A model generated the notes under the pieces. It did no database searches. It had not been told where the DNA came from and saw only the letters and a program-made list of their open reading frames with translations. A stretch of DNA of 13,613 bases, taken from IMG/VR virus record IMGVR_UViG_2778261693_000009; one strand, written 5' to 3'. This stretch comes from a virus (lineage: Duplodnaviria > Heunggongvirae > Uroviricota > Caudoviricetes). Within the stretch, counting starts at the first letter, position 1. Every line of letters starts with the position of its first letter. Of the stretch, positions 2,572 to 13,613 are shown one piece after another. The translations under genes and the position numbers were made by a program.

Positions 2572-3453
2572 ATGCAGCATTCAAAAGAGAATGAAACTAT
2601 ATTCTTAGGAAATCTATGGATTGACAAAAAAATACCACCATTAGAATATTGTTCATTTGAACGCGCTTCAAGACTATTAGAATGCGAGATTGATGATTTA
2701 TTACACCTATACGAAATAGGCGCTTTTAATATCGCATTCAAGGCGGATGGACTTGCAGTTAGATTTAATGTTAATTTCCTCTATAAAAATCAGAAAATGG
2801 AAATTGACTTAATTCATCCCGTATTAACTAATCAATCACTAGAGATGGAATTTTCAACAATATGGTATGACCTTAAAGATGACTCCTTTGAACATTTTGA
2901 AAATGGGCTTCAAATTATAGGATTTGCCTGTGGTATTTGGTACGCCGATGATATGATAAGTGACATAAAAAATGGATTAGCTATAGATCCAGATTATGAA
3001 TTCAGGCTTAAACCGGTAAAAATACGAGATAATGTTTTGATGGCAACGGCCTCATATGAAGGAAATAAGGTCATTGATATTCCATTTGAAGATCTTCTTA
3101 TCATGCGAAGAGATTTAGAGTTAATATGGAAATCAGTAAAAACTGGAATTCCTATGCCAAGTTTACTTACGAAAAGAATTTCATCTGAACCTAAAATCCC
3201 CAAGCGATTAAATAACACTGCTGAGCATCATGCAAAAAATAGGGAGGGGTTATTAAATGCAGCCATATATATATTAGCAAAATACCCAAGCGAATGTCGT
3301 GGTGAAAGAAAAGAGATAAGTCCTGAAAAGTGGACTAACGCCATAATTAAACATTTAGGAGAGCTACCTCCAATATTTATCACTAATGAACAAGAAATCT
3401 TAAGAAAATTACGATTAGCGGTTAATCATGCGGGATTAAAACAAAAGGGGTAG
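2572..3453 (+). CDS. Hypothetical protein, 293 aa; AT-rich orphan cargo gene directly downstream of int
   Basis: Clean ORF with SD AGAGG 5 nt upstream of the ATG, 30 bp after the int stop. Markedly AT-rich by eye (roughly low-30s percent GC versus over 50 percent in the flanking core genes). No motif I recognise (no P-loop, no obvious nuclease or HTH signature, no hydrophobic segments). Confidence 0.7.
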   Translation: MQHSKENETIFLGNLWIDKKIPPLEYCSFERASRLLECEIDDLLHLYEIGAFNIAFKADGLAVRFNVNFLYKNQKMEIDLIHPVLTNQSLEMEFSTIWYDLKDDSFEHFENGLQIIGFACGIWYADDMISDIKNGLAIDPDYEFRLKPVKIRDNVLMATASYEGNKVIDIPFEDLLIMRRDLELIWKSVKTGIPMPSLLTKRISSEPKIPKRLNNTAEHHAKNREGLLNAAIYILAKYPSECRGERKEISPEKWTNAIIKHLGELPPIFITNEQEILRKLRLAVNHAGLKQKG

Positions 3454-4976: not shown

Positions 4977-5356
4977 ACCAGCCGCAGGTTTCCATTTTCC
5001 CGGCAGAAATGACCACCGCGCTTTACCGGCGGGCTATTGCTTCAGCATGGCGGCAGAAAATGCTGAACGAAACTGGCAATGATCAGTATGGTCCGCACAG
5101 CCTGACGGTGGAGCGTATTGAAATGGCCATTGCGCTGCATATCGAGTGCGCACTGATTAACGAGTACGGCGAAGCACAGGGCGCCGCTGCCGCGCTGGCA
5201 CTGCTGACTGACATGCTGGAGCCGTCACTGCTGACCGCGCCGCCGGTACTGACCGCGCGCGGTTGTGAAGTAATGGCGGAGATGTACCGCACGCTTCCGG
5301 CGGCCTTTGATGTCTGCTGCAGTACCGGTGTGACGTTGTATCAGGGGGAAGTATGA
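4973..5356 (+). CDS. Hypothetical protein (127 aa), translationally coupled to the primase gene
   Basis: ATG at 4973 with SD GGAGG; its stop overlaps the primase start (ATGA at 5353..5356). Confidence 0.5.
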   Translation: MNQPQVSIFPAEMTTALYRRAIASAWRQKMLNETGNDQYGPHSLTVERIEMAIALHIECALINEYGEAQGAAAALALLTDMLEPSLLTAPPVLTARGCEVMAEMYRTLPAAFDVCCSTGVTLYQGEV

Positions 5357-8025
5357 CAATACAGACGGTTACGCAGATTTCAGCCGCCGCGCGGGGGAAA
5401 TGGCCCGTTATTCTGCAGATGCTGCGTATTGATGTACCTGAAAACGGCAGGCACGGTCCCTGCCCGAAATGTGGGGGCAAGGATCGTTTTCGCCTTGATG
5501 ACCTTGACGGGCGCGGGACGTGGATCTGCAGCCAGTGTGGCAATGGTGACGGTCTGGATCTGGTTAAGCTCGTAACCGGTTACAGCGTCAGAAAGGCTGC
5601 GCAGGAGGTGGCGCAGGTGCTTAATGTGCCGGATGTGCAGGAACTGCCTGTTAAGCCTGCCAGACAAAAAGCCCCTAAACGCGACATGGGTCTTACCGTG
5701 GCGGCGCTGATGAAAGAGAGCCACACGGGAGAAAGCGCCTATCTGACAGGAAAAGGGTTCGCCGGATACCCGGCCTCTCTGACCGGAAGCGTGCAGCATA
5801 TCAGCGGTAAGGATTTTCCTGCCGGTTCCCTGCTGTTACCACTCACGACCAACACCGGAGCCGTGACCGGTGCACAGCTTATCGCCCCGACGGGTGAAAA
5901 AAGCATACTGCCCGGCAGCACGATGAAAGGCGCGTTTGTGTCGCTCAGCCCGTTACCGTCTGAACCACCGGTACAGGTGGTGATTACCGAAGGTTACGCT
6001 ACGGCGCTGACGGTAAGCCAGCTCACTGCCGGATGCGTAGTGGCTGCCATATCTGCGGGCAACCTGCCCAATGTGGCGCAGTCGCTGCGGGCACGCTGGC
6101 CTGAGGTAAAAATTATCATCGCCGGTGATAACGATTTTCAGGATGGGGGGGAGAATCCCGGCAGAGCCTTTGCTGAACGGGCGGCAAAAGTTGTTGGCGG
6201 CTGGATGACGCTGCCACCAGGAGAGATTAAGGCTGACTGGAATGACTTTCATCGGGAGCACGGTATTACCCGTGCCCGTGAAGCCTTTCGCAACGGTCTG
6301 GTACTGTGCGGGGAAGGCCGCACGCAACTGCCGCACGGGTTCCGTCTTACCCAGGAATATCTCTGGTATGAAAAGCAGGTACAGCGCAACGGTGAGACGG
6401 AGATCCAGAACGTCAAAATATGCAGCCCGCTGCGCGTGACGGCAATCACCTGCGATGCCGATGGCGGTAACTTCGGACGACTGCTGGAATGGGAAGATAC
6501 GTGGGGTGAGCGTCGCCGCTGGGCGATGCCGATGGAAATGCTGAGCGGCAGTGGTGAGGAACTGCGCCGGGTACTGCTGGTTAACGGGCTGTCTTATATC
6601 AGCACTACCGGTGAGGCACGCGCACGCCTGATGGAATATATCTCACTGTGTAAACCGGAACGCCGCGTGACCTGCGTCAGCCGTACTGGCTGGCATGGTC
6701 AGGTTTACGTCCTGCAGGATGAGGTCAGCGGTGAAGGTGCAGAGGGTGTCATTCTCCAGACCACTTCCGTGCAGGGGCGTGATTTCCGCGTGTCGGGCAC
6801 AACAGAGGAATGGCGGGAGAACGTATCCCGCTACTGTACCGGCAACTCTCGCGTGGCATTTGCTGTCAGCCTGGCCTTTGCTGCACCACTGTTACGGCTG
6901 GTTGGTATGGACGGCGGCGGCTACCACCTCAAAGGGGAATCGACAGACGGTAAGACCACCACCATGAAAGCGGCAACCTCCGTCTGCGGCGGGCCTGACT
7001 ACTGGCAGACATGGCGGGCCACCGGCAACGCGCTGGAGGGATGCGCCAGCCGCCGCAACGATGCCGCCATGATGCTTGATGAGATCCGGGAAGTTGACGG
7101 ACGCGAGGCAGGCAATATCGCCTACATGCTGGCAAACGGTCAGGGCAAGGGCCGTGCCGGTACGGACGGTGAGCTGCGTACCCGTAAGCAGTGGCGCCTG
7201 TTGTTCTTTTCAACTGGCGAGTTGTCTCTGACCGAACATGCGGCAAAGGCCGGTGAGCGTACTTTTGCCGGGATGGAAGTCAGGATGATCCAGATCCCCA
7301 GCGATTCCGGGAAATTTGGCGTTTTTGAGGAGCTGCACGGCTTCGACAGCGGCAAGGCTCTGGCAGAGCATCTTGAATGGGCCACGTCCTGCTACTACGG
7401 TTCGCCGTTCCGGGAGTGGCTAAAAGCACTGACCGCTGATCTTAACGGACTAACGGCACAGGCAAAATCGCTGATGAAGGAATATGCTGCCGCCCTGACT
7501 CCGAAAGATGCAGGCAACCAGGTGGGCCGGGCTGTGAATCGCTTTGCACTGGTGGCGATGGCGGGTGAACTGGCAACCCGTCTGGGTATCACCGGCTGGC
7601 CTGAGGGTGAAGCACTGCGGGCAACCCGCGTCTGCCTGAACGCATGGCTGAAAGATCGCGGGCACACCGCCAATCAGGAAGATATTGCCGCACTGGAGCA
7701 GGTTCGCAGTTTCTTTACCGCGAATCAGTACAGCCGCTTTGCAGACTGGTATGACGAGCGCAACCGCCCCGGCAATATGGTGGGCTGGCGCAGGGTGGAG
7801 AAAGGCAGTACCGCGCAGGGCACGGAAGCTGTCACTACGTTCTATGTCATGCCGTCCGGCTGGAAAGAAATCTGCAGGGGATTTGACCCGCGCAAGGTGG
7901 CGCGTCTGTGCGCAGATCGTGGATACCTGCTGCCCTCCACTGATGGCAAACTCCAGACAACCATTCGCCCGCCAGAGATGAATCCCCGCAGGCTCTATGT
8001 CTTCAACAGCGAGGTGCCGGGTTAA
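5353..8025 (+). CDS. P4 alpha-like bifunctional DNA primase-helicase (zinc ribbon, TOPRIM, D5/SF3-type P-loop NTPase)
   Basis: 890-aa ORF with SD GGGGGAAG. Zinc ribbon C37-P-K-C40 ... C59-S-Q-C62. TOPRIM-like ITEGY (nt about 5984..6001) and AGDNDF (nt about 6121..6138). Walker A GESTDGKT (nt about 6934..6960) and Walker B MMLDEI (nt about 7066..7083). Confidence 0.9.
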   Translation: MTIQTVTQISAAARGKWPVILQMLRIDVPENGRHGPCPKCGGKDRFRLDDLDGRGTWICSQCGNGDGLDLVKLVTGYSVRKAAQEVAQVLNVPDVQELPVKPARQKAPKRDMGLTVAALMKESHTGESAYLTGKGFAGYPASLTGSVQHISGKDFPAGSLLLPLTTNTGAVTGAQLIAPTGEKSILPGSTMKGAFVSLSPLPSEPPVQVVITEGYATALTVSQLTAGCVVAAISAGNLPNVAQSLRARWPEVKIIIAGDNDFQDGGENPGRAFAERAAKVVGGWMTLPPGEIKADWNDFHREHGITRAREAFRNGLVLCGEGRTQLPHGFRLTQEYLWYEKQVQRNGETEIQNVKICSPLRVTAITCDADGGNFGRLLEWEDTWGERRRWAMPMEMLSGSGEELRRVLLVNGLSYISTTGEARARLMEYISLCKPERRVTCVSRTGWHGQVYVLQDEVSGEGAEGVILQTTSVQGRDFRVSGTTEEWRENVSRYCTGNSRVAFAVSLAFAAPLLRLVGMDGGGYHLKGESTDGKTTTMKAATSVCGGPDYWQTWRATGNALEGCASRRNDAAMMLDEIREVDGREAGNIAYMLANGQGKGRAGTDGELRTRKQWRLLFFSTGELSLTEHAAKAGERTFAGMEVRMIQIPSDSGKFGVFEELHGFDSGKALAEHLEWATSCYYGSPFREWLKALTADLNGLTAQAKSLMKEYAAALTPKDAGNQVGRAVNRFALVAMAGELATRLGITGWPEGEALRATRVCLNAWLKDRGHTANQEDIAALEQVRSFFTANQYSRFADWYDERNRPGNMVGWRRVEKGSTAQGTEAVTTFYVMPSGWKEICRGFDPRKVARLCADRGYLLPSTDGKLQTTIRPPEMNPRRLYVFNSEVPG

Positions 8026-8425: not shown

Positions 8426-9169
8426 ATGAACAACACCGCAGTGAATAACAACCTTTCCACTTTTCCGGCTGTAACGCAGCGGGCACTGGAAACCATGAAC
8501 ACAGCCAGAAACGCATGGCTTGAAGCACGTCGTCAGCAGAAAGCGGCAGCGGATAATATTGCGACAATCCGCCAGCGTCGCGCTGAGATGGAAGCCACGA
8601 CGAACACACTGAATGAGGAGTGGCGCACGCTGTTTCGTGAAAGTCAGGGCGTGGTTTCAAAGGAAATGAAAAAACTGCGCACGGAAATTGCGCTGGGACG
8701 AGAAACGCTTGAGGATTTTGATGAGCTGCTGGCGGCTCAGGAAAGCGAAAATGCACTTTTGCCGCAGAAAGCTGCGGAATTAGCCGGAAAGTATATCCAC
8801 GCGCATAACATTCTTGTGGATATTCGCGCAAAACAAATCTGGGAAGATTTTATGCAATCGCATGGAAAAGCGCTTATTCAGACGCTGAGCCTGCTTAAAT
8901 CCACAATGGGCCGGGAAGCCAGTGCCGTTGTGGGTGTGGTGAATTCAGTTAATGACCCGGACACAGTGCTGAAAGACTTTATTCATAAACATATCACCAG
9001 ACCGGCTCTGGCTAACGATGCGATGCCTGAACAGGACCCGGTGTTTAAACTGGCGGGAATTGCCCCGGATTATGCGGCGCGTCTGGATTTCAGTAATCAA
9101 CTCTCTCCGGCAGCTATGCATAAAATTAAGGTTCGTCAGGAACTTGCTGAGAAGGAGAAAGCAGTATGA
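8426..9169 (+). CDS. Sid-like protein (candidate capsid size-determination scaffold); assignment by size, position and predicted helical character
   Basis: 247 aa (P4 Sid is about 244 aa). SD AGGAG at 8416..8420. Charged, helix-prone sequence rich in A/E/R/K/Q. First gene of a three-gene operon ending in an Ogr/Delta-like gene. Confidence 0.4.
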   Translation: MNNTAVNNNLSTFPAVTQRALETMNTARNAWLEARRQQKAAADNIATIRQRRAEMEATTNTLNEEWRTLFRESQGVVSKEMKKLRTEIALGRETLEDFDELLAAQESENALLPQKAAELAGKYIHAHNILVDIRAKQIWEDFMQSHGKALIQTLSLLKSTMGREASAVVGVVNSVNDPDTVLKDFIHKHITRPALANDAMPEQDPVFKLAGIAPDYAARLDFSNQLSPAAMHKIKVRQELAEKEKAV

Positions 9170-9792: not shown

Positions 9793-9796
9793 TTAA
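9793..9796. repeat. IS5 target-site duplication, left copy (TTAA)
   Basis: TTAA immediately precedes the left IS5 inverted repeat. Confidence 0.8.
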
Positions 9797-10991
<1,195 letters not shown>

Positions 10992-10995
10992 TTAA
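10992..10995. repeat. IS5 target-site duplication, right copy (TTAA)
   Basis: TTAA immediately follows the right IS5 inverted repeat. Confidence 0.8.
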
Positions 10996-11214
10996 ACGCT
11001 CGTGGTATCAGTGCCAGAATCTGGAATGTTCCTGCACATTTACGGCACTGGAGAGTGTGGATAAGATAATCATGAAACCCCGACGCAATGAACAGCTATC
11101 AGACAAAGCACAATCCCCGGAAAAACAACAGCAAACACTTAATCGCTATGGCTCCGCGTCAAAACTTTCAAGCCGTCAGCAGATTCCTGTCTGATTAGAA
11201 AGAACGCCCACGTA

Positions 11215-11240
11215 ATCCCGGTCCAGTACCGGGATTTTTT
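11215..11240 (+). terminator. Rho-independent terminator closing the late operon
   Basis: ATCCCGG (11215..11221) / CCGGGAT (11229..11235) 7-bp stem with a 7-nt loop, followed by a T-run (11235..11240). About 20 bp after the Ogr/Delta-like stop. Confidence 0.7.
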
Positions 11241-11402
11241 ATCCCCTTTTCCTGGCTGGCATGAGAGCGAATGAGTGCATGTCTATGGCGCATGAAAACG
11301 CATGAGTCTTATGCACCATTTTTGACGAGAAAACCCTTGTTTGGTGGCTTCTGAGACGATTTATGAGGTGCATGAAAACCAGTCTGTTAAGCGAAGCGGG
11401 CA

Positions 11403-11421
11403 GGCGTGCGGGGCTGCGCAC
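11403..11421. other. Candidate degenerate cos-like sequence (P2/P4-type cohesive end); low confidence
   Basis: GGCGTGCGGGGCTGCGCAC loosely resembles the P2/P4 19-nt cohesive end GGCGAGGCGGGGAAAGCAC as I remember it (about 12 of 19 ungapped). It sits between the late operon and the AT-rich cargo, where cos lies in P4. Confidence 0.2.
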
Positions 11422-11621
11422 GGAGGCGGAATAAATAGTAATGCTATGGATGCTGGGCACACATAGATAAGAGGTTTACAAATAGTATGCTTGTTGTCGT
11501 AACTGATAGGGGTCTATCAAAATCAGAAATCAAAAACAGTATTTCGTGTAATTTATAGAATTTTCACAGAAAACATATACAATCGTTTCTGATACAGGAG
11601 TCTGATTAAGTTGGGATTATT

Positions 11622-13613
11622 ATGGCCATTCAAAAAAAACAAACAAAAAATTCTGAAAGAAGTATTAAAAGCCAGTTAGAAAAACTTACGGCTGAAAAAG
11701 CCATTTCCGAATATATTTGGAATGCTTTTGATGCTGAAGCCACAAATATTAATATTACAGTTATCCCAAATGGTTTAAGTGGGATATCTTCAATAGAAAT
11801 TATTGATGATGGAACTGGCATCGATTTTAATGAAGTCGATGAAACTTTCGGGCAGTTTTTAGATTCCAAGAAGAAAGCAAAACGAACGCCTGTCACAAGA
11901 GGACATAAAGGTAAGGGGCGGTTTTCATTCTGTAAATTCGCTGATAAAGCCGAATGGACTAGCTGGCGTAATGGAGAGAAATTTACGCTAACTATAGTTT
12001 CATCACATCTAAATGAATATGAGCATTCAGATTTATCCATGTGCTCTCATAAAAATTCTGGAACTAAGGTGGTCTTTAATCCTGTAACAATTACTGAAGA
12101 TTATTTTAATTCAATAGTTATACCCTATTTGCAGAACGATATATCTTGGCTGTTGGTGGCCAAACCAAAATTAAAATTAAAAATAAACGGTCAATCTATT
12201 AGCCCAATAGGATATGCTTCAACTTCAAATAATATTGAATTTGGAGAGGTCGATTTTAATTCAAAAACAGTTATATGGTCTAGTAAACCTGTAGTAGAAA
12301 AATCATATATATATTATTTAAATAATCAAGGTGATATTGTTTACAAAGAGTTTTCTGAGATGAACAAAAAAGGATTTGATTGTTCATCCTATGTCACATC
12401 AAGTTGGTTTGATGATTTTTCTGAATCAAACGACTTGTTTAATGAATCGAAAAACAGTGTTGACTCAGATATTTTTAAATACATTAGCCTACATGTTAAA
12501 GGTAATTTAAGGGAAGAGTATAGAAAATATAAAAATAATGCAGCAGATCAACTCATTCAAAACTATTTAAATGAGGGTGTGTTTCCAGAATATAAAGGTG
12601 AGAATAGAATGCTCAATGAATTTAAAAGGAATCAACTCATTGAAACTATAAAGATAATTTATGAGGCCGAACCTCAAATTTTCTCCACACTAAACAAGAA
12701 ACAAAAAAAAATCTTAATTAAACTATTAGATAGAATTGTTGAAACCAATAATTTATCCAGTCTCTTTGACATTTTTGAAGGTATAGTTTCCCTATCCGAA
12801 GATGAGGTTGATAAACTTTCATCTGTAATAAAAAGAAGTTCACTTTCTAATATTACGAGGACTTTGTCATTTATTAATGATAGACTGGATGTTATTGATT
12901 ATTTTAAAAAAATACTATATGAGAAAAAGAAAGAATCATATGAAGTAAAGCACATTCAAAAGAGCATAGAAAATAATTTATGGCTTTTTGGAGAGCAATA
13001 CACTCTAGTTGCATCAGAAGATGATAAGTTTGATAAAGCTCTTAGAAAGTATCTGGAGAAGACTAAAGGTTTTAACGAAGCACATTATAATAAGTATAGT
13101 GTACAGCATCCAGATAAAAATAAAGAAATGGATATATTTGCAGCACAAAAAATAAAGCGTTACACTGAAAATAATGAAGAATATTTTCATTGCATTGTGA
13201 TTGAATTAAAGAAACCAAGTATAAAACTCGGTGATGAAGAACTCGCACAAATAAAGTTATATAAAAATATAATATCTGCGACTGATGAATTTAAAGACGA
13301 TAATACAAAATGGGATTTTATTTTAGTGGGAAATGATATATCTAATAGCAATATCACTGCTGCAAATTTATCATCAGATCTAGAAACGAATAAAATACAT
13401 GGTGAGTTTGGCTTGGTTCAAAAAACAACAAATATGAAAATTTACGTCAAAACGTGGAAGCAAATTTTAAATGAGTATGATCTTAGATATAACGACCTGA
13501 TCGATAAGCTTAAGTTGAAAGAGTTAGAAATTGCAGAAGATATGGGGCCTGATGAACTCACGGCAAAAATTTTAGAAAAAACGGCAAGACTTCCGACTTC
13601 GATACAGGCTTAG
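11622..13613 (+). CDS. GHKL-family (Bergerat-fold) ATPase with a C-terminal PD-(D/E)xK-like putative nuclease region; AT-rich cargo gene and candidate anti-phage factor
   Basis: 663-aa complete ORF whose stop codon is the last three bases of the window. Weak SD GGGA 5 nt upstream. N-terminal motifs: E30-x3-N34-x2-D37-A38 (EYIWNAFDA), D62-D-G64-T-G66 (G1 box), G94-x2-G97-x-G99-R-F (G2-like). C-terminal motifs: D504 (EMDIF) ... E528-L-K530 (IVIELKK) ... Q543. Very AT-rich by eye (about 30 percent GC), unlike the satellite core. Confidence 0.75.
   Translation: MAIQKKQTKNSERSIKSQLEKLTAEKAISEYIWNAFDAEATNINITVIPNGLSGISSIEIIDDGTGIDFNEVDETFGQFLDSKKKAKRTPVTRGHKGKGRFSFCKFADKAEWTSWRNGEKFTLTIVSSHLNEYEHSDLSMCSHKNSGTKVVFNPVTITEDYFNSIVIPYLQNDISWLLVAKPKLKLKINGQSISPIGYASTSNNIEFGEVDFNSKTVIWSSKPVVEKSYIYYLNNQGDIVYKEFSEMNKKGFDCSSYVTSSWFDDFSESNDLFNESKNSVDSDIFKYISLHVKGNLREEYRKYKNNAADQLIQNYLNEGVFPEYKGENRMLNEFKRNQLIETIKIIYEAEPQIFSTLNKKQKKILIKLLDRIVETNNLSSLFDIFEGIVSLSEDEVDKLSSVIKRSSLSNITRTLSFINDRLDVIDYFKKILYEKKKESYEVKHIQKSIENNLWLFGEQYTLVASEDDKFDKALRKYLEKTKGFNEAHYNKYSVQHPDKNKEMDIFAAQKIKRYTENNEEYFHCIVIELKKPSIKLGDEELAQIKLYKNIISATDEFKDDNTKWDFILVGNDISNSNITAANLSSDLETNKIHGEFGLVQKTTNMKIYVKTWKQILNEYDLRYNDLIDKLKLKELEIAEDMGPDELTAKILEKTARLPTSIQA

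Follow-up and report, generated by a model that had tools for sequence, protein, structure and literature searches.

The DNA analysed here (the window) is a stretch of 13,613 nucleotides from IMG/VR virus record IMGVR_UViG_2778261693_000009. Between a late operon and a low-GC cargo gene it carries a spacer of about 200 bp. The question raised by this spacer is whether it is the packaging site of a phage satellite, whether such a site would still be intact, and where it would be cut. An earlier note on this DNA had tentatively proposed that the spacer may hold a degenerate cos site. From conservation and homology, we consider it probable, at roughly 0.8, that positions ~11267-11423 function as the cos site of a P4-like satellite. 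A P2/P4-family cos in a P4-like satellite, beside a known hotspot, belongs to a kind of feature that has been described before.

The window is a chromosomal segment of the E. coli type. Judged by its genes, the element within it is a P4-like satellite, integrated at tRNA-Arg(CCT) beside yfdC. The element runs in the order int, alpha primase, sid-like, psu, ogr/delta, cos, cargo hotspot. Pfam domains comprise an integrase, a Toprim/DUF927 primase, two Psu-family proteins and a split Ogr/Delta. By these matches the element holds the core set of a P4-like satellite (int, alpha, sid, psu and delta) and no structural genes. The genes and their surroundings are as follows.

1-933: yfdC, a formate/nitrite-transporter gene
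1009-1081: tRNA-Arg(CCT)
1207-2541: tyrosine integrase
2572-3453: low-GC ORF
between this ORF and the primase: several small genes
5353-8025: primase with Zn-ribbon, Toprim and DUF927
8426-9169: sid-like Psu-family protein of 247 aa
9166-9717: Psu, 183 aa
9714-9796 and 10992-11194: Ogr/Delta gene, 90 aa, split by IS5, with its stop codon at 11194
11214-11236, plus strand: rho-independent terminator of the late operon (sid-psu-delta), with a 9-bp stem, a 5-nt loop and a T-run, after the Ogr/Delta stop
11622-13613, plus strand: low-GC cargo gene of 663 aa, a GHKL-type ATPase (HATPase_c_3, E = 2.5e-20), outside cos

The terminator is the left boundary of the cos spacer. The candidate site lies after delta and this terminator, about 200 bp beyond the late operon, and directly before the low-GC cargo. 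The cos of P4 (NC_001609, end junction) is placed in the same way, directly after the late operon and directly before a non-essential/defence hotspot. The two satellites differ in that the late genes are ordered sid-psu-delta in the window and sid-delta-psu in P4, and the window's Psu is only ~30% identical to that of P4. A defence hotspot directly next to cos has been described in both P4-like satellites and P2-like phages (PMC9122126; PMC8628076).

The same element occurs at yfdC/tRNA-Arg, with 99-99.8% identity and without IS5, in many complete E. coli genomes; another IS5-free copy is that of NCTC9087 (NZ_LR134231.1). In the closest relative, NZ_CM136170.1 (L146), the cargo is the same as in the window and the IS5-free element measures ~11.9 kb, bounded by a 16-bp repeat of the tRNA 3' end (att repeats). 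P4-like satellites are about 11-12 kb long, a size that fits the small capsid. The window's copy, IS5 included, would measure ~13.1 kb, with attR beyond the window's end. The IS5-family element lies at 9797-10991, with its transposase ORF at 9943-10959 on the minus strand and a TTAA target duplication on either side (9793-9796 and 10992-10995), and it cuts the Ogr/Delta gene into the two parts given above. The insertion is recent, since near-identical satellites are free of it elsewhere in E. coli. Besides adding ~1.2 kb, it probably puts late-gene transactivation out of action. Mobilisation of the window's own element may be impaired by the insertion in delta and by the ~13.1-kb length, independently of cos.

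Three further observations concern this setting. Compared with L146 (18793-19101), positions 10992-11300 of the window (the 3' part of delta and the terminator) are only 96.8% identical, the 196 bp directly before IS5 are 99.5% identical and the cos region at 11260-11425 is 100% identical. This mosaic of identity around IS5 and cos hints at local recombination. Directly after the satellite's attR repeat, L146 carries a second integrase-bearing element (21949-30414) that encodes a rolling-circle replication protein and a SIR2-family protein, so that mobile elements stand in a tandem array at tRNA-Arg. Finally, the 293-aa ORF at 2572-3453, directly after the integrase, has a GC content of 0.32-0.35 and no Pfam or PADLOC match; it may be a second accessory or cargo position of the satellite.

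Is the spacer related to the cos sites of phages? A blastn search with 11100-11640 as the query against 50,697 phage records (INPHARED), made without prior selection, returned only P2-like phages over 11274-11413. In the records inspected, these matches fall in the gap between gpA/DinI and the portal gene or, for Burkholderia phages, at the record ends. P2-like phages keep their cos between replication gene A/DinI and the portal gene. When IMG/VR was scanned with a 15-mer box taken from the window, ~105 cos regions were found, of one dominant type (T1). Of the T1 loci collected, 90 belong to P2-like phages (portal and/or DinI) and 2 to satellites. A cos profile was then built from 98 distinct P2-like phage sequences, phages only. 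It has a single match in the window, at 11267-11417, with E = 4.8e-19, which overstates the significance, as the window-derived 15-mer had served to collect the training phages. The flanks were therefore re-scored without those columns. The upstream half matches 11266-11326 (E = 3.8e-9) and the nick-region half matches 11394-11415 (E = 3.4e-3), each being the best match of its profile in the window, and the two are collinear. Alignment to P2-family cos regions, which the earlier note had named as the check, is thus significant, and the idea of a packaging region placed as in P4 is upheld by position, by these E-values and by the architecture.

An alignment with the P2 and P4 end junctions and four phages shows a shared GCAT cluster, spacer, (A)GGTGCAT(G/T)AAAACC box and GC-rich core. 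Against satellites that are 99.8% identical, homology runs only as far as 11416-11419, where the cargo begins; near-identical satellites carry different DNA from 11417-11420 onward, and after the right flank each lineage has its own cargo. The parts of the region, including two candidate positions for the cohesive end, are listed here.

11277-11306, plus strand: distal cluster of three direct GCATG repeats (GCAT at 11277, 11290 and 11300; spacing 13 and 10 nt)
11311-11316, no strand assigned: inverted GCAT copy ATGCAC, in conserved columns
11318-11326, no strand assigned: conserved T-run ATTTTTGAC, with a T-run at the equivalent place in P2, P4 and T1 phages
11367-11380, plus strand: proximal box GGTGCATGAAAACC, invariant in relatives
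11381-11423, plus strand: GC-rich nick region (cosN equivalent), 43 nt, as in P2, P4, 186 and T1 phages
11398-11416, plus strand: predicted 19-nt cohesive end, model A, GGGCAGGCGTGCGGGGCTG, in the register of P2/P4/186
11403-11421, plus strand: alternative 19-nt cohesive end, model B, GGCGTGCGGGGCTGCGCAC, by local similarity and at the coordinates of the earlier note
11417-11423, plus strand: right flank CGCACGG, semi-conserved and GC-rich, equivalent to P2 TGCGCGC, with variable hotspot DNA after it

The GCATG repeats are putative terminase recognition sites. The records of P2, P4 and 186 annotate the ends, and measured back from the top-strand nick their GCAT motifs lie at 122-123, 110, 100 and 28 nt. 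Successive motifs in the window follow this layout at intervals of 13, 10 and 70 nt; the 70-nt interval separates the third repeat from the proximal copy at 11370 and corresponds to 72 nt in P2, P4, 186 and RE2010. The distal GCAT triplet with a spacing of 12-13 and 10 nt is our own observation from P2, P4 and 186 rather than an established criterion, and the window has it too. Counterparts of the proximal box are GGTGCATTAAAACC in P2 and CTGCATTAAAACC in P4 and 186, each 28 nt before the mapped nick.

The proximal box is the start of the P2-family cos core. A conserved core of ~55 bp is described in the passages of PMC3931495 and PMC5694545 that cite Ziermann and Calendar 1990. The window has each part of it: a TGCAT(T/G)AAAACC box, a GC-rich nick region, and a flank, CGCACGG, within the variation of its relatives (CGCGCGC, CGCACGC, CCCGCGC, CTCGCGC and similar), in which conservation drops from ~11416-11423. 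After AAAACC the core measures 43 nt in all types compared.

P4 and the window have in common the three distal GCAT repeats, the proximal TGCAT(T/G)AAAACC box, the 43-nt GC-rich core and a GCGCGC-like flank. P2 and 186 (NC_001895 and NC_001317; ends annotated) have the same overall architecture and spacing as the window and leave 19-nt 5' cohesive ends, with distal repeat sequences and a 19-mer that differ from the window's. The 19-mer of P4 with its flanks is identical to that of P2 (GGCGAGGCGGGGAAAGCAC), whereas the window matches it at only 11-12 of 19 positions. In E. coli genomes, similarity between the P2 type and the P4 type is confined to the ~60-bp core. The cos of lambda (cosQ-cosN-cosB) likewise has a nick site with repeated recognition elements for terminase and an AT-rich stretch on its flanks. 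This is an analogy only: there is no sequence relationship between lambda cos and the window, and the lambda overhang is 12 nt.

This architecture also shows which of the features first seen in the spacer carry information. The 10-bp direct repeat is real: GCATGAAAAC stands at 11290-11299 and 11370-11379, exact in both places, and these are its sole exact copies in the window. Alone it is marginal. With up to one mismatch allowed, 48 of 200 window shuffles give as many matches or more, and by our own estimate two exact 10-mers within 200 bp would arise by chance with a probability of ~0.02. The copy at 11290-11299 belongs to the distal cluster, however, and that at 11370-11379 to the proximal box, and the repeat is for that reason a real part of the cos architecture. 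The small GC hairpin, on which the earlier note had also relied, exists as well (CGTGCG at 11405-11410 pairs with CGCACG at 11417-11422, 6 bp). We rejected it as a feature: it has z = 0.12, 109 of 200 shuffles fold equally well, and the pairing columns 11407 and 11420 vary independently in relatives, with no covariation. The 19-mer at 11403-11421 is where it was said to be, but its likeness to the P2 cohesive end (12/19, ungapped) is at chance level, with 15 sites of at least 12/19 in the window against 14.6 +/- 3.8 in shuffles. In the P2 register (11398-11416) the match to the P2 cohesive end is 11/19. The family type of this GC-rich cohesive end is GGCG(A/T)GGCGGGG(A/G)NA(G/C)NNN; the left half of the window's 19-mer (GGCAGGCGTGCGGGG) is common to T1 phages and 500465-1. 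The main evidence once given for a cos site, the 19-mer and the hairpin, is thus at the level of chance. What is informative in the spacer is the GGTGCATGAAAACC box together with the GCAT repeats, to which the 10-bp repeat belongs.

The closest relative of the window's site is the T1 cos of RE2010-, 500465-1- and Fels-2-like P2-like phages (Peduoviridae; Felsduovirus, Wadgaonvirus, Elveevirus and Gegevirus). Its sequence ends in AAGCGGGCA, then GGCGTGGCGGGGATACGAG, then CGCGCGC. The dominant form in IMG/VR is ACTACATAAAGCGGGCA, GGCGTGGCGGGGATACGAG and CGCGCGC, followed at once by unrelated DNA. The nick region of the window, AGTCTGTTAAGCGAAGCGGGCAGGCGTGCGGGGCTGCGCACGG, defines a second type (T2). 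The distal repeats of T1 and T2 are nearly identical (TGCATGTCTATG..GCATGA...CGCATGA), and the two types are identical in the proximal box AGGTGCATGAAAACC and in GCGGGCAGGCGTG. They differ in that T2 has AAGCG duplicated (5 bp, in the left half) and a right half that is 5 nt shorter, with GCGGGGCTG where T1 has GGCGGGGATACGAG. Despite the duplication and the 5-nt loss, the total core length of T2 is kept at 43 nt, the same as in T1. The spacer between repeats and box is 2 nt shorter in T2 than in T1 and lacks the GC hairpin of T1.

T2 is widespread. The 166-bp region is found in 863 of 5426 complete E. coli genomes (16%), nearly all at 87-100% identity, and 880 of 898 copies are contiguous with the 3' end of delta. 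In IMG/VR, 20 loci contain a 23-mer of T2 and 39 contain the duplication hallmark. All of these (20/20 and 39/39), and both matches among GTDB representative genomes (2/2), are satellites, each with delta, psu or sid adjacent; the two GTDB matches, in Scandinavium and Pseudocitrobacter, are too few to speak for distribution. Conversely, the T2 nick region occurs in 0 of 90 and 0 of 72 P2-like phages and is absent from INPHARED, where the best phage identity is 71%. The sample of 72, retrieved via the portal, is a biased sample of P2-like phages, as it contains only close relatives of the RE2010 portal, all of them T1. T2 appears to be confined to satellites and register-shifted relative to the helper cos, and the confinement is to be read as a lead, because sampling was by exact-pattern scans and biased protein retrievals. 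In the literature searched we found no description of this confinement or of the register shift.

Judged by its sequence, the window's cos is intact, not degenerate as had been suggested. Among 27 distinct relatives the columns of the distal cluster, which include the first GCATGAAAAC copy, are 90-100% conserved, and the window matches at every column that is at least 90% conserved, deviating at none. The cos is also more conserved than psu. In one relative, L191, psu is 61% identical to the window's (nucleotide; 45% aa), yet the repeats are 93% and the core 95% identical. Such a difference favours constraint or, at the minimum, the exchange of a module that works. The high conservation of cos need not be due to selection for packaging alone; a recent spread, or the exchange of delta and cos as a module, could account for part of it.

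Several other satellites bear on such exchange. L338, L344, L346 and L330 share only 35-50% identity with the window in the proteins psu, sid and alpha and 89-91% in the C-terminal part of delta, and what is visible of their cos core hardly differs from that of the window. It seems that delta and cos move together, as a single module, between satellites with divergent backbones. L191 comes from the same contig as L339.

Could the region nevertheless be a relic, its nick region inactivated by the register shift and its carriers fixed as non-mobilisable islands? It is true that no phage cos sampled has this nick region, that conservation of the right flank is lower than in types P2 and T1, that the element in the window has IS5 in delta, and that one relative (L342) has a visibly truncated core. 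Set against this, the non-coding core and repeats stay 93-95% identical where psu has fallen to 61%, and without constraint it is hard to see why the duplication should be offset so as to preserve a length of 43 nt. Cargo is swapped exactly at the core edge in many lineages, which points to continuing exchange, and T2 is present in 16% of complete E. coli genomes in several integration contexts. We regard a relic as improbable. Less probable still is that the conserved repeats are mainly regulatory (a promoter or operator) or part of a small ORF or RNA, with only the short GC-rich part related to cos. What speaks for it is that part of the GCAT cluster of P2 lies just upstream of the annotated old-tin transcript starts, that a ~48-aa 'hypothetical protein' is annotated across the region in some phage records, and that the window has a 73-codon minus-strand ORF at 11239-11460. 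The repeat-to-nick distance, however, is fixed in P2, P4, 186, T1 and T2 while neighbouring genes and their orientations differ. No sigma-70-like promoter was found in 11100-11700, which leaves the spacer without a candidate promoter for the cargo. A known RNA family was likewise sought and rejected, the best Rfam match being a snoRNA model below threshold (E = 0.26). The cargo gene starts 200 bp further on, and in relatives the cargo stands in either orientation (PMC9122126). The spacer had been described as non-coding, and this holds except for the minus-strand ORF, which has a GTG start and which we regard as spurious. Short 'hypothetical protein' ORFs are annotated over the cos repeats in L006 (3018-3161) and L007 (3017-3166) as well; as with the ORF in the window, these are probably artefacts of annotation, lying on a non-coding site that is conserved.

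Within the preferred reading, that of a cos site, a more specific proposal can be made for T2. It may be a satellite-specific packaging signal that retains the recognition repeats of the helper and combines them with a register-shifted nick region (the AAGCG duplication compensated by the 5-nt loss), cut by T1-type terminases. The ends would then be non-complementary to those of the helper or, if both nicks follow local sequence, would carry a 14-nt overhang. We put this forward as a tentative possibility and would sooner bet against it than for it. If true, it would mean either that satellite ends are kept separate from helper ends or that P2-family terminases have an unexpected tolerance at the nick site.

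Where, then, would a T2 site be nicked? Model A places the start of the 19-nt cohesive end 28 nt from the proximal GCAT, as in P2, P4, 186 and RE2010. The context of its right nick, G^CGCGC-like, is as in T1, and homology and strong conservation end where its right edge lies (11416-11419). Model B follows local similarity instead. Its left context, GCGGGCA^GGCGTG, is identical to that of T1 phages, and the nhmmer alignment prefers the gapped register; its right nick lies only 2 nt before variable DNA. Nicks that each obeyed their local context would leave an overhang of 14 nt. Since the +5/-5 change is compensated, the distance from box to right flank seems to be constrained, and for this reason we lean slightly to model A. 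The cohesive end, given by the earlier note as 11403-11421, may thus instead lie at 11398-11416 if the register of P2, P4 and 186 is kept.

Which helper could supply the terminase? Among 80 satellites sampled via an alignment of Psu, cos type tracks Psu lineage. A P4-like Psu goes with the P2/P4 19-mer or a 186-like one (39 P2/P4-type, 1 scored as 186-type, and ~6 of 13 'other' that are 186-like). A Psu ~55% identical to the window's goes with T1 cos (6 loci), and where Psu is 44-100% identical the cos is T2 or a close variant (13 loci and ~7 of the 'other'). P2-type and T1-type satellites have helpers with the same core. A nick core shared between T2 satellites and a helper, as P4 shares its core with P2, was not seen in the phages sampled (90 and 72, and INPHARED). 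T2 matches T1 helpers only in its repeats, its box and the left half of its core. The distal repeats and box of T2 are nevertheless much closer to T1 phages than to P2, and T1 cos is common in E. coli (1425 of 5426 complete genomes). One IMG genome, 2751185936, has both, with a T2 satellite (L337, contig _000008) and a 33.4-kb P2-like T1 phage (L066/L295, contig _000001), an anecdotal satellite/helper pair. From the likeness of repeats and box, the frequency of T1 and this one genome, we infer that the natural helpers of T2 satellites are most likely P2-like phages of type T1.

Four T2 satellites (L142, L143, L336 and L345) have a P2-like portal gene 0.6-1.8 kb beyond cos, on the opposite strand; in L142, cos is at ~8429 and the portal at 10253-11215. 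These portals have ~88% aa identity to the RE2010 portal over ~320 of 346 aa. The order cos-cargo-Q at these loci is that of helper phages. They look like products of satellite/helper exchange with the junction at the cos core edge.

By homology with P2, P4 and 186, we infer the following packaging mechanism for a T2 cos. During the lytic cycle of a helper, a P2-like terminase (gpM as the small and gpP as the large subunit) would recognise the GCATG repeats and the GGTGCATGAAAACC box. It would then make staggered nicks in the GC-rich 43-nt region that follows. P2 packages monomeric circles. The satellite genome would be packaged into helper-derived capsids and, after injection, the single-stranded cohesive ends would re-circularise the satellite DNA. 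Cos is the one cis element that lets a P4-like satellite, with its adjacent defence cargo, move between cells. If intact as its sequence suggests, it would mean that the cargo hotspot from ~11424 is bounded by a working packaging signal, not a dead scar. The variant occurs in about 1 in 6 complete E. coli genomes and is without an identical counterpart in any helper phage sampled. Helper identity and cut site bear on the engineering of P4-based transducing particles with altered helper specificity.

The cargo itself has a GC content of 0.27-0.35. Its protein combines the N-terminal GHKL ATPase domain with a weak HSDR_N_2 match, and its sole PADLOC match is to a type II restriction enzyme model, also weak (E = 1.3e-7). 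The gene at 11622-13613 is probably a single-gene defence candidate in the hotspot adjacent to cos.
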